A program made the position numbers and the translations under genes. A stretch of 44,077 nucleotides of DNA from Shigella phage EP23. Position 1 is the stretch's first letter, and every line of letters begins with the position of its first letter. The notes under the pieces were generated by a model, which saw nothing but the letters and a program-made list of their open reading frames with translations, did not search any database and was not told where the DNA came from. Shown piece after piece: positions 34,955 through 42,513 of this stretch. The DNA is taken from the sequence record JN984867. One strand, given 5' to 3'.

Positions 34955-35133
34955 TATTCCACCCGTGTAAACTGGACAATTACATATTTCACATTCGCCA
35001 AGCCCGCTTTTTCGACACGGCTGCGCACTTCATGCTGCGCATCGGTCCAGCACATCGAGGCGTCCTTGTTAACAACAAGAAAAGAGAAATGGTCGTTTAA
35101 TTCGTGGCAAGTTGCCAGCACGAAAAATTTCAT
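34954..35133 (-). CDS. small hypothetical protein (59 aa; below the ORF-track cutoff)
   Basis: Translated by hand: MKFFVLATCHELNDHFSFLVVNKDASMCWTDAQHEVRSRVEKAGLANVKYVIVQFTRVE. TAATG overlaps at both ends indicate translational coupling. Confidence 0.5.
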   Translation of the reverse strand: MKFFVLATCHELNDHFSFLVVNKDASMCWTDAQHEVRSRVEKAGLANVKYVIVQFTRVE

Positions 35134-35384
35134 TATTTTGTCTCCCAGCGGTCAATTGTTTTTGCTTCGGATGCAACGGCGAAGCGAACATATTCCAGAT
35201 TGGAGTCAGCCCAAATATAAAAATCGGGGTTAGTAAAGGTGGTGCGCTTAATTTGCGCGGGGGTGTTGCGGCGTTTATCTATTACGGCAACGCGGGATTG
35301 AAAGCTGCCGATGCGTTCGAATAGCCAATAGTACGGGCGCTGGTCGCGGGAATCCACCGCCTCGATTAGCGTGAATCGTGCCAT
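35133..35384 (-). CDS. hypothetical protein (83 aa)
   Basis: ORF with a GGACGAGA SD-like sequence, directly downstream of the terminator at 35397-35424. Confidence 0.5.
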   Translation of the reverse strand: MARFTLIEAVDSRDQRPYYWLFERIGSFQSRVAVIDKRRNTPAQIKRTTFTNPDFYIWADSNLEYVRFAVASEAKTIDRWETK

Positions 35385-35396
35385 TGTCTCGTCCTC

Positions 35397-35424
35397 TAAA
35401 AAGAGGCCCGCTAATATGCGGGCC
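35397..35424 (-). terminator. intrinsic terminator
   Basis: On the minus strand: GGCCCGC-ATATTA-GCGGGCC followed by TCTTTTT. Confidence 0.7.
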
Positions 35425-35562: not shown

Positions 35563-36078
35563 TTAATCTTCCAGTTCGAAATAAGTTTCGACGATTTCTT
35601 TTAGCTCTTTGTGGAAGTCTTCGACGTCGTCATCTTCCAGCTTAGCGATTGATTTGATCTCGAACGATTCCAGAAGGTCGTCGAATTCGTCGTTCGCATC
35701 GTCGTCATCGCCACCGGCGATAATCGCGGCATACTGTTTGATTTCGTCGCGCATCTCCGCCAGCGGATCGGCATCTTTCTTACCTTTGCCTTTCGCCGGT
35801 GCTTTCTTAGACTTAGCCGGTTTTTCGTCTTCGGCATCGGCATCGTCGTCGTCATCTTCTACGACTTCTTTTTTGGCCTTACCTTTCGCCGGTGCTTTTT
35901 TGGTTTTCGCCGGGGCTTCGTCTTCAGCGTCGTCATCTTCTACGACTTCTTTTTTGGCCTTAGACGGCTTCTTGTCTTCCTGTTTACCAACGGCAGCGCC
36001 AACGGTTTCATAATGCTTAGCGATGATTTCCAGTGCTACTACGCCGCGAGTGATCAGGTTTACGATTTGCTCAAACAT
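35563..36078 (-). CDS. highly acidic early protein with Lys/Ala-Asp/Glu repeats (171 aa)
   Basis: SD GGAGA before the ATG at 36078. Repeats KKEVVEDDD..DE.PAK.KKAPAKGK. First gene downstream of the strong 36275-36303 promoter. Confidence 0.65.
   Translation of the reverse strand: MFEQIVNLITRGVVALEIIAKHYETVGAAVGKQEDKKPSKAKKEVVEDDDAEDEAPAKTKKAPAKGKAKKEVVEDDDDDADAEDEKPAKSKKAPAKGKGKKDADPLAEMRDEIKQYAAIIAGGDDDDANDEFDDLLESFEIKSIAKLEDDDVEDFHKELKEIVETYFELED
35780..35965. repeat. tandem ~81-bp repeats within the acidic protein gene
   Basis: gtcatcttctacgacttcttttttggcctta occurs at 35851-35881 and 35932-35962. cctttcgccggtgcttt recurs nearby. Confidence 0.8.
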
Positions 36079-36274
36079 GGTATATCTCCGATTGGTTAAG
36101 TTTAGGTGTCGACCATTAACTTCGTCGGTGGCCTTAACATAGTGCCAGGTTACGCGTTCTCCCGTTCGGGTAGTGGACCTGGTTATATAATCACGGTTGG
36201 GAATCCTGACACTTCGATCCGGCCCCTGCGTTGCCCCTCTCCAGTTTGCGTCCTGCATCCTGTCGACGAGGTGA

Positions 36275-36303
36275 ATATTAGATTGGTTGCAGAAGGGAGT
36301 CAA
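36275..36303 (-). promoter_or_regulatory. strong sigma70-like early-left promoter
   Basis: On the minus strand: TTGACT-17 nt-TAATAT, with TGCAACCAA in the spacer. About 190-nt leader before the ATG at 36078. Confidence 0.65.
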
Positions 36304-36313
36304 CAACTAATTT

Positions 36314-36350
36314 AAAAAAAAAAAGCGCCGAAGCAAAATGCGACGGCGCT
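36314..36350 (-). terminator. strong intrinsic terminator with no upstream protein gene
   Basis: On the minus strand: AGCGCCG-13-nt loop-CGGCGCT followed by T11. Confidence 0.8.
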
Positions 36351-36372
36351 AACCAATAAGAGACAATGAGAC
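36314..36372 (-). ncRNA. candidate ~60-nt small RNA (promoter-to-terminator unit)
   Basis: Bounded by the candidate promoter at 36379-36407 and the T11 terminator. No ORF. Purely structural prediction. Confidence 0.3.
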
Positions 36373-36378
36373 GGGAGT

Positions 36379-36407
36379 ATTATTACACGCGTGCGCGCCC
36401 GTTTCAA
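36379..36407 (-). promoter_or_regulatory. candidate promoter of the sRNA unit
   Basis: On the minus strand: TTGAAA-17 nt-AATAAT, preceded by TGT (extended -10). Back to back with the plus-strand promoter at 36421. Confidence 0.4.
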
Positions 36408-36420
36408 TATCCCAAAGGAG

Positions 36421-36449
36421 TTGACACCCTGCGGTTTTAGGTGTAGTTT
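36421..36449 (+). promoter_or_regulatory. sigma70-like early-right promoter
   Basis: TTGACA-17 nt-TAGTTT, then SD GGAGA and the ATG at 36481. Confidence 0.6.
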
Positions 36450-36480
36450 CATTGGTCATTAACCAACCGGAGACAGAATA

Positions 36481-36810
36481 ATGAATATCAACGACGCAAT
36501 CGAAATGCTAACGAAGACTGTCTGCAGTGAGACTAGCCGGTCCTGGGCGTATACCGATGCCGTGGGGGCGGTGCTATTTGAAATCGAACGTCTGCGACTT
36601 ACCGAAAAAGAATTGCGCGCGAAGCTGGAATTACTCAACGGTACGGCAGCCAGCAAGCTGCAAAAGCACAATGAAGAAATGGAAGAATACAAAAAACAGG
36701 TTATCCGTTTGCGCGCCGAGGGAAAATCCTGGGCGATGATCGCTGAGTTGACAGGAATTAATCAGAGCACCGTGCGCTCCTGGGTACGCAATAACAAAAC
36801 TTCGAAGTAA
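36481..36810 (+). CDS. HTH DNA-binding protein (109 aa)
   Basis: C-terminal helix-turn-helix KSWAMIAELTGINQSTVRSWVRNN. First gene of the rightward early operon. Confidence 0.6.
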   Translation: MNINDAIEMLTKTVCSETSRSWAYTDAVGAVLFEIERLRLTEKELRAKLELLNGTAASKLQKHNEEMEEYKKQVIRLRAEGKSWAMIAELTGINQSTVRSWVRNNKTSK

Positions 36811-42483: not shown

Positions 42484-42513
42484 TTGACTTGCAACCAACA
42501 TAGACTCTATACT
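42484..42513 (+). promoter_or_regulatory. sigma70-like promoter
   Basis: TTGACT-18 nt-TATACT. TGCAACCAA lies right after the -35 and TGCGACCAA right after the -10. Confidence 0.6.

Follow-up and report, generated by a model that had tools for sequence, protein, structure and literature searches.

A candidate trans-acting small RNA gene between the divergent early promoters of Shigella phage EP23, with predicted pairing to the first genes of both early operons

The divergent early control region of EP23

The 44,077-bp sequence of Shigella phage EP23 (JN984867), referred to here as the window, is the complete genome of an HK578-like siphovirus of Escherichia coli, genus Dhillonvirus. Between its two early operons lies a compact minus-strand unit, consisting of a strong promoter (P1), a short transcribed segment, and an intrinsic terminator. 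The RNA predicted from this unit has complementarity to the translation-initiation region (TIR) of the first gene in each operon, and we propose that the unit may encode a trans-acting small RNA (sRNA).

The structural genes run rightward (~0 to 23.7 kb), genes for replication and recombination form an operon that extends leftward from 36,078 to ~23.7 kb, and a second early operon, which encodes a helix-turn-helix (HTH) protein, a helicase-primase, and others, runs rightward from 36,481. Positions 36,079-36,480 form the sole divergent control region of the genome and hold the candidate sRNA locus; over the 1-kb region around it, 173 GenBank phage records match at 80-98% identity. We refer below to the first leftward gene (start codon at 36078) as gene L and to the HTH gene (start codon at 36481) as gene R. 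Their promoters, PL and PR (Table 1), have predicted start sites at ~36268 and ~36456, respectively. The -10 hexamer of PR is weak, matching the consensus at three of six positions, but it has the key A2 and T6. PR stands back to back with P1, its TTGACA lying at 36421-36426 as the initial annotation of this sequence had it, and the predicted starts of the two are ~84 bp apart. Parts of this arrangement have been marked before: the GenBank record of HK578 (JQ086375) gives P1, PL, and PR by consensus, and LR999870 gives the terminator. An RNA gene is annotated at the locus in none of 153 GenBank records, which carry at most consensus promoter or terminator marks or short hypothetical open reading frames (ORFs).

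A promoter and a terminator 30 nucleotides apart

P1, TTGAAA-17-TGTAATAAT at 36407-36379 (minus strand), matches the sigma-70 consensus at 10 of 12 positions and has a TG extension of the -10 element. A consensus scan of both strands of the 44 kb returned three 10/12 matches; P1 is the only one with the extension and the best in the genome, which bears out the TTGAAA-17-AATAAT promoter with extended TGT that had been pointed out at 36379-36407. In divergent lineages the -35 hexamer reads TTGCGC or TTGCGT at the same place and the -10 hexamer TATAAT or TATTAT, and the position of the promoter relative to a conserved CUCAUUG is kept in all of them. In the P1 spacer, GCGCGCACGCGTGT, purines and pyrimidines alternate in a G+C-rich tract that includes the palindrome CACGCGTG, and the alternating CG/TG character is retained in the divergent lineages despite a different sequence. 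It is a speculative thought that the spacer could act as an operator or respond to supercoiling by forming Z-DNA.

Thirty nucleotides downstream of P1, with no conserved ORF in between, lies the terminator hairpin. The initial annotation described a stem of seven G-C pairs followed by 11 T residues at 36314-36350; position and T run are as described, and the stem consists of six G-C pairs plus a closing A-U pair that takes the first T of the run. The fold has a minimum free energy (MFE) of -16.2 kcal/mol (z -3.3 to -4.0 relative to dinucleotide shuffles), and 0 of 200 shuffles were as stable. The T11 run at 36324-36314 is the only run of at least eight T in the genome, and the only one of that length to follow a hairpin in the 44 kb. 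The strongest promoter-like and terminator-like sites of the genome thus occur 30 nt apart in the correct order and orientation, far beyond what chance would produce.

The stem is maintained by compensatory change. Five versions occur among the relatives (AGCGCCG/CGGCGCU, AUCCCCG/CGGGGAU, AUCCCCAG/CUGGGGAU, GCCUGGCC/GGUCAGGC, and AUCCCC/GGGGAU), and compensatory double changes affect six of the nine consensus stem pairs in a nine-sequence alignment. One close lineage (L011, L018, and L028) differs from the window by two such double changes, from AGCGCCG/CGGCGCT to ATCCCCG/CGGGGAT. In the relatives L069 and L070 one stem pair is G.U when read on the minus strand and would be an A.C mismatch on the plus strand.

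The predicted RNA (Table 1) takes its 5′ end from the -10 element, with a start at G36372, and its 3′ end is placed within the U tract. Its 5′ tail is unpaired in both the MFE and the centroid structure and contains three blocks: UCAU, complementary to a start codon; UGUCUC, complementary to a Shine-Dalgarno (SD) sequence; and UUGGUU. Inspection for Hfq-type features revealed the U10-11 tail and, just before the hairpin, UUAUUGGUU; we infer that Hfq may be involved.

Conservation and distribution of the unit

Of the GenBank phage records, 153 contain the 94-nt unit, and in 147 of these the identity is at least 90%. We aligned the window with 30 close relatives from IMG/VR, metagenomes, and GenBank (31 sequences). 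The 5′ tail, AACCAATAAGAGACAATGAGAC on the plus strand, is invariant in this alignment apart from a 1-nt deletion in the lineage of L011, L018, and L028. Around it the sequence varies, 1-nt indels included. Close relatives differ between the -10 element and the start, in the loop of the hairpin, in how long the T run is, in the spacer of PL, in the gap between P1 and PR, and in the promoter flanks.

These 1-nt indels break the ORFs that cross the locus on both strands, so a coding function is excluded, in agreement with the initial annotation, which saw no protein gene upstream of the terminator. Two minus-strand ORFs annotated as hypothetical in some relatives, 36452-36312 (46 aa) and 36459-36349 (36 aa), are frameshifted by indels at 36373-36378 and near 36409, and a plus-strand mini-ORF starting at ATG 36366 is shifted by indels at the same places.

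More divergent relatives were located through helicase-primase homologs (60-88% identity to that of relative L014) in metagenome and Logan assemblies, on contigs with the same gene order. In L014/L068, L069, L070, and L071 a minus-strand unit with -10 and -35 elements lies at the same place, and its transcript would carry a conserved CUCAUUG at the 5′ end, then a tail that varies, and finally a hairpin with U9-13. The unit reaches relatives down to ~54-68% helicase-primase identity. It is absent from the more distant L075-L077 (helicase identity to L014's at most 50%) and from the Guernseyvirinae phage STP-1 (44% to the window's). Kept in divergent relatives and absent beyond them, the unit behaves as a conserved, clade-specific RNA gene and not as a terminator alone; the ~60-nt sRNA candidate of the initial annotation, as judged from its sequence, holds as a conserved transcription unit.

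Searches against known RNAs returned nothing at the locus. No Rfam 15 family reached its gathering score anywhere in the window, and with the cutoff relaxed to E<=10 the stretch 35950-36550 gave only sub-threshold matches driven by the terminator; ARAGORN found no tRNA or tmRNA. The absence of any blastn match in 5,426 complete E. coli genomes rules out mimicry of a host sequence or a host-derived copy. Attempts to extend the divergent set from L014 (in GenBank phages and, by protein, in IMG/VR) gained no useful relatives, and a structured DNA pattern search for L014-like units returned the known contig and chance matches only; two of the pattern matches, L090 and L097, proved to be an ordinary gene TIR beside a bidirectional terminator.

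Complementarity to translation-initiation regions

What might the invariant tail pair with? The sequence AACCAANNNGAGA occurs three times in the 44 kb, against 0.06 copies expected, and all three lie within this 400-bp region: in the sRNA locus (on the plus strand, and so antisense in the RNA), in the R TIR, and in the L TIR (36097-36085, minus strand, UUAACCAAUCGGAGAUAUACCAUG). Sense in both mRNAs and antisense in the sRNA is the orientation that RNA pairing requires. Of the four copies of the shorter TAACCAA in the genome, three lie here. The R TIR makes up essentially all of the short 5′ untranslated region from PR, and AACCAACCGGAGACA at 36461-36475 covers the SD of gene R.

For the L TIR the predicted duplex has 8 + 7 bp and an energy of -16.6 to -18 kcal/mol; for the R TIR it has 7 + 8 bp and an energy of -16.9 to -19 kcal/mol. 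The tail's UCAU can additionally pair with either start codon. When we ranked the 84 start sites of the genome that have an SD and an ORF of at least 40 codons, the top three duplexes all belonged to early genes next to the locus: a 59-aa gene starting at 35133, gene R, and gene L. Both flanking first genes would fall among the top three of 84 by chance with a probability of ~1e-3. The complementarity of the 5′ half of the RNA to the SD region of the HTH gene, which the initial annotation had proposed, accordingly stands at second place among these starts. The TIR at 35133 (-19.7 kcal/mol) is nearly the same as that of gene R and is conserved in relatives, with duplexes of ~-18 kcal/mol. That of an 83-aa gene starting at 35384 has a 9-nt perfect match to the tail complement, start codon included, but about five 9-mer matches are expected genome-wide by chance, and this TIR is only suggestive as a target.

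The two main TIRs differ in how they are conserved. In the L TIR, UUAACCAAUCGGAGAUA is kept in most relatives even though they differ immediately upstream of it and may have or lack a ~150-nt element, and both variable positions fall at sites predicted to be unpaired. In the R TIR, AACCAAC is kept among close relatives. HK578-type genomes (L016, L019, L031, and L072-L074) have an R gene with another N-terminus and another leader that lacks AACCAA; their R TIR still matches the 5′ end of the sRNA, through 10 contiguous nucleotides (AGACAAUGAG) over the start codon in L019, L031, and L072-L074, and through a shorter CAAUGAG in HK578 itself (L016).

Lineage-specific change of tail and TIRs

The tails of the divergent lineages end in the anti-SD sequence CUCCUGA(A), and the bases next to it follow the cognate TIRs. 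In L069 the tail complement AGGAGAU-ACCAGAAUG corresponds to the cognate R TIR AGGAGAUUACUAGAAUG (-25.1 kcal/mol), and the same tail pairs with the cognate L TIR GGAGAUAUACGAAUG at -21.1 kcal/mol. The tail complement of L070, beginning GGAGAUAC, corresponds to its L TIR GGAGAUACAAGAUG (-22.4 kcal/mol), and that of L014, AGGAGUCCG, to its L TIR AGGAGUACG (-19.4 kcal/mol); in L071 the tail pairs with the cognate R TIR at -24.7 kcal/mol. When every tail was paired with every TIR, the cognate assignment was the best of 120 permutations for L and the 7th of 720 for R (p~0.01). Most cognate duplexes were also better than those formed by 500 shuffled tails, with z of -2.6 to -4.6.

Table 1. Coordinates of the features in and around the candidate sRNA locus and of the copies of the left-operon leader element in other phages
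Feature	Coordinates	Strand	Basis
P1 -35 hexamer, TTGAAA	36402-36407	-	consensus; invariant in window-type relatives
P1 spacer, 17 nt, CGGGCGCGCACGCGTGT	36385-36401	-	alignment of relatives
P1 extended -10, TGT-AATAAT	36379-36387	-	consensus; conserved
Predicted sRNA, ~55-59 nt, GUCUCAUUGUCUCUUAUUGGUUAGCGCCGUCGCAUUUUGCUUCGGCGCU(U)n	36314-36372	-	sequence and folding
Single-stranded 5′ tail (seed), 22 nt, GUCUCAUUGUCUCUUAUUGGUU	36351-36372	-	folding; alignment
Terminator hairpin, AGCGCCG-N13-CGGCGCU, with inner GC(A)/(U)GC mini-stem	36324-36350	-	folding; compensatory variants
U11 tract of terminator	36314-36324	-	length 8-14 among relatives
Predicted target 1, TIR of first leftward gene (ATG 36078), UUAACCAAUCGGAGAUAUACCAUGUUU	36073-36099	-	duplex rank 3/84
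Predicted target 2, TIR of HTH gene (ATG 36481), UUAACCAACCGGAGACAGAAUAAUGAAU	36459-36486	+	duplex rank 2/84
Weaker candidate target, TIR of 83-aa gene (ATG 35384), GAGACAAUG	35379-35400	-	duplex rank 11/84
Weaker candidate target, TIR of 59-aa gene (ATG 35133), GGGAGACAAAAUAAUGAAA	35128-35152	-	duplex rank 1/84
Left early promoter PL, TTGACT-17-TAATAT, TGCAACCAAT in spacer	36275-36303	-	consensus; relatives
Right early promoter PR, TTGACA-17-TAGTTT	36421-36449	+	consensus; relatives
Leader element copies	L078:1176-1421, L079:1090-1361, L080:1160-1345, L081:359-560, L082:330-560, L083:328-561		
Leader element copies	L084:269-530, L085:283-524, L086:289-527, L069:1330-1500		

A model for the function of the unit

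We propose the following model. Host sigma-70 RNA polymerase would start at P1, with G36372 as the predicted first nucleotide, from the first moments of infection, and would stop ~57 nt further on at the strong intrinsic terminator. The product would be an abundant RNA whose 5′ tail of 22 nt is unstructured and is followed by a G+C hairpin and a long U tail. The tail can be viewed as an antisense mosaic of a TIR, its UUGGUU, anti-SD UGUCUC, and anti-AUG UCAU blocks being predicted to pair in trans with the TIR of the gene that opens each divergent early operon: leftward, the gene for an acidic 171-aa protein (36078), and rightward, the gene for a small HTH regulator (36481). Two further early-left genes, at 35384 and 35133, are possible additional targets. 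Such pairing would cover the SD and the start codon and would thereby lower translation, and probably the stability of the mRNAs as well; we infer repression as the sign of regulation from the position of the predicted duplexes. On the sequence evidence, we consider it somewhat better than an even chance that the locus encodes a functional trans-acting anti-TIR sRNA, working like the c4 RNA of phage P1 or like Hfq-type anti-SD sRNAs, with no match to a known family. That a discrete short RNA is made from the locus is a claim that we would make with somewhat greater confidence.

Several observations weigh against this model. The tail is rich in anti-SD sequence and will favor any strong SD, and the complementarity stands out among start sites only: over all 30-nt windows of both strands, R ranks 11th and L 20th, and in a whole-genome duplex scan with the tail the best sites after the self-complement are G+C-rich and lie inside genes. 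The SD half of the R TIR drifts in close relatives (GGAGACA, GGGGACA, GGGGGCA, GAGGGCA) while the sRNA is invariant, most of the changes, but not all, being A-to-G opposite U. The AACCAA block overlaps GCAACCAA, a DNA motif over-represented throughout the genome that is also found in the spacer of PL and, for some lineages, in the leader of gene R, so that part of the resemblance between sRNA and TIRs may arise at the DNA level. The cognate duplexes of L018 with L, and of L014 and L070 with R, were no better than those of shuffled tails, and homogenization of DNA repeats could mimic co-variation. Since the lineages are also few and partly related, the joint change of tail and TIRs is good but not conclusive support for the model. 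A literature search for a Dhillonvirus sRNA, transcriptome, or transcript map found none. The drift in R further bears on the claim of the initial annotation that the HTH mRNA is the target. The complementarity it relied on is present, but gene L, which it overlooked, is an equally good and more conserved partner, and in HK578-type genomes both gene R and its leader have been replaced.

Alternative explanations

It is conceivable that the locus acts as DNA. The hairpin and T run might keep minus-strand transcription, whether started at P1 or running antisense out of the right operon, from reaching PL, with the A/T tract serving PL as an UP-like element, and P1 might act by recruiting polymerase or by altering supercoiling beside PR, the RNA being a by-product with no function in trans. 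The geometry fits: the -35 hexamer of PL begins 10 nt past the T run, which places the tract at ~-46 to -56 of PL, this distance is the same in all lineages, and P1 and PR are back to back. What such an arrangement leaves unexplained is an invariant 22-nt transcribed tail among drifting neighbors, its complementarity to both flanking TIRs, and the joint change of tail and TIRs in divergent lineages; nor does a terminator by itself need a dedicated strong promoter 30 nt upstream. We therefore regard this explanation as unlikely, and the suggestion in the initial annotation that the terminator merely insulates the early-left promoter falls short for the same reasons. Insulation may nevertheless be part of the picture, in that the terminator may well shield and stimulate PL as well as end the sRNA, and the U tract may, judged by its position only, double as an UP-like A/T element.

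Does the likeness between the locus and the TIRs instead reflect repeated binding sites for a protein? AACCAAT-type sites could be bound by a phage protein, most plausibly the HTH product of gene R, which would control PL, P1, and PR, with RNA pairing being incidental. That product matches HTH_23 and Sigma70_r4_2. The motif GCAACCAA has 17 copies in the window against 1.35 expected, often in pairs, and copies lie inside the spacers of PL and of a promoter-like site at 42484; TGCAACCAAT is present in the R leader of L014, L068, L069, L070, and L071 and doubled in their PL spacers. The triad formed by the sRNA locus, the R TIR, and the L TIR has TAACCAA, however, and not GCAACCAA; the sRNA locus of L014, L069, and L070 is devoid of AACCAA, the TIR matches there lying in the segment between SD and AUG; and the shared sequence has the orientation that RNA pairing needs, each mRNA having the sense version and the sRNA the antisense one. 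An operator in place of a pairing RNA is in our view about as improbable as an insulator, but the two readings are not exclusive. The motif deserves attention in its own right. Its sites include 6462/6476 (+), 22006 (+), 24913 (+)/24932 (-), 26579/26596 (+), 33278/33262 (-), 36290 (-), 39526/39495 (-), and 42491 (+); the pairs are tandem or palindromic, and the promoter-like site at 42484 scores 10/12. By its distribution GCAACCAA is probably an operator or promoter motif of a phage regulator, and the gene R product, with its Sigma70_r4_2-like match, is the obvious candidate binder.

P1 could also be a second leftward promoter, from which polymerase gets past the terminator and into the left operon only with the help of a phage factor or an RNA element, an attenuator comparable to the 6S RNA of the lambda PR′-tR′ region. 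A strong promoter followed by a short terminated transcript does lie just upstream of a long operon here, and the tail contains CUCUUA, which we take to resemble the core of lambda boxA. Yet the left operon has its own conserved promoter, PL, immediately downstream, its genes serve early replication and recombination and not late functions, no Q- or N-like gene was identified in the genome, and an attenuator does not predict complementarity to the R TIR on the opposite strand. Because PL follows at once and the operon is early, we find this arrangement quite improbable, more so than either of the DNA-level explanations. Least probable is a transcript that primes or activates replication at the point where the early operons diverge, since neither iterons nor an AT-rich unwinding element were found apart from the U tract, the TIR complementarity is left unexplained, and the points in its favor come down to a helicase-primase gene 450 bp away and a minimum of cumulative GC skew at ~36 kb, where gene orientation diverges, a minimum that is not independent evidence given that phage GC skew follows gene orientation.

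If the unit does encode a pairing RNA, the lineage-specific tail and TIR pairs might amount to an RNA-based specificity code. The sRNA of an infected cell would silence the first early genes of a later phage of the same lineage and not those of a phage of another lineage, providing superinfection exclusion or a means of competition between phages by analogy with the heteroimmunity of P1 and P7, while the same RNA times the phage's own divergent early operons. We offer this as a speculation that is, on present grounds, somewhat less probable than an insulator or an operator.

The first leftward gene and a structured leader of the left operon

Gene L (35563-36078, minus strand) encodes a very acidic 171-aa protein that matches PHROG 3127 (unknown function); no Pfam match was found, and some records name it a Gam-like nuclease inhibitor. 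The protein contains an internal direct repeat (KKEVVEDDD..., 35600-35960), with GTCGTCATCTTCTACGAC present twice at the DNA level, and its length varies among relatives. Its frame stays open for 76 codons upstream of the real start, ATG 36078, which is preceded by GGAG (35563-36306, minus strand). As a result, gene callers over-extend the gene across the structured leader described below and PL, and several GenBank records are so annotated.

The 5′ leader of the left operon (~36112-36262 in minus-strand sense) contains a ~145-nt structured element that is present or absent, as an indel, among close Dhillonviruses. The element is shared at 73-94% identity with unrelated siphophages (Drexlerviridae and others), among them Warwickvirus, Hanrivervirus, Changchunvirus, Jilinvirus, and Murrayvirus as well as Serratia and Klebsiella phages (Table 1). 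It is always intergenic and in sense orientation; a -10-like hexamer precedes it by ~10 nt, and the genes that follow it are unrelated. Four blocks of it are invariant, GGAGAGGrGCAACGCAGGGGC, GAUCGwAGUGUCAGGAUUCCCAACCGUGA, AGAACGC, and CCGACGAAG; many compensatory variants are seen in its stems (CAGGU/ACCUG, CUAUC/GAUAG, AUUGG/CCAAU, AUGAU/AUCAU, CGCAC/GUGCG, and AUAAC/GUUAU), and its 5′ hairpin carries GGA in the loop. Rfam returned no match to it even at E<=1. From its sequence the element looks like an undescribed structured RNA, candidates being a portable leader, a ribozyme or riboswitch-like element, or a protein-binding RNA, and it may merit more attention than the sRNA itself.

Inside the left operon, just upstream of the 35384 gene, a terminator-like hairpin (35405-35424, minus strand) of the form GGCCCGC-loop-GCGGGCC is followed by UCUUUUU. 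It is kept in all relatives examined, and its loop is found in both orientations (TAATCT versus AGATTA), as flipping of the palindrome would give. A put-like antitermination role of the leader element was considered and rejected, in that this terminator is present with or without the element and no correlation was seen in either direction.

Significance

Dhillonviruses are common E. coli phages that include members of the BASEL collection and many therapy isolates, and their regulation is essentially unstudied. To our knowledge, most characterized phage sRNAs come from temperate phages. If our model is true, EP23 would be a clear case of a virulent phage that sets the translation of the first genes of both its early operons with its own trans-acting sRNA. 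The divergent lineages would then supply several natural, mutually distinct sRNA/TIR pairs, handy for compensatory-mutation tests and as orthogonal parts, and the short "hypothetical protein" annotations over the locus in several genomes could be corrected.

Comparison with known RNAs

The closest parallel is the c4 RNA of the immI regions of phages P1 and P7, a short trans-acting RNA that uses non-contiguous blocks against the ribosome-binding region of a phage mRNA and blocks its translation; RNA and target change together by lineage, which is the basis of P1/P7 heteroimmunity (PMC12197685). Likewise, the predicted sRNA has two to three blocks (AACCAA, GAGACA, and AUGA on the target side), separated by small loops, that face ribosome-binding regions in trans. 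Unlike c4, it has a sigma-70 promoter and an intrinsic terminator of its own, its 5′ tail is linear, its two predicted targets lie on opposite strands, and the phage that encodes it is virulent. The c4 RNA is cut from the same transcript as its target, and its complementary blocks lie in loops of the folded RNA. Among the Rfam families, c4 included, none matched the locus at gathering score.

Two other phage RNAs share its genomic setting or its architecture. The sar RNA of phage P22 has its own promoter in a compact control region with divergent promoters and pairs over the ribosome-binding site of ant, limiting its translation (PMC12197685). The predicted sRNA, unlike sar, overlaps no mRNA and would pair imperfectly with targets 110-290 bp away on both sides. 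Sar is cis-encoded and overlaps its target, so it is fully complementary. Lambda OOP is a 77-nt RNA of the early region that has its own constitutive promoter and an intrinsic terminator and is antisense to a phage mRNA (PMC12197685). OOP is a cis-antisense RNA to the 3′ end of cII and acts via RNase III cleavage, whereas the predicted sRNA would pair in trans at the SD and the AUG. No plus-strand gene or predicted mRNA crosses 36314-36372, and the locus is in this respect no cis-antisense unit of the sar or OOP kind.

Enterobacterial Hfq-dependent anti-SD sRNAs such as ChiX, Spot 42, and the prophage-encoded DicF combine a single-stranded 5′ seed, a G+C terminator hairpin, and a long 3′ U tail, and pair imperfectly, over 7-15 bp, with the SD or AUG of several mRNAs. 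The predicted RNA appears, from its sequence, to share the 5′ seed, the G+C hairpin, the long U tail, and a U-rich stretch before the hairpin. It differs from these sRNAs in its lack of similarity to E. coli genomes or Rfam families, in being encoded by a virulent phage, and in having the phage's own early genes as predicted targets. The lambda 6S RNA (PR′-tR′) is likewise a short terminated transcript from a strong constitutive promoter upstream of a long operon, but in EP23 the operon downstream is early and has its own promoter, no Q-like antiterminator was identified, and the tail is complementary to TIRs. On its sequence features we would therefore file the EP23 RNA under a known kind, the trans-acting anti-TIR sRNAs, as a candidate member that is unusual in belonging to a virulent phage, in being nested between divergent early promoters, and in being aimed at both of the operons that they drive.

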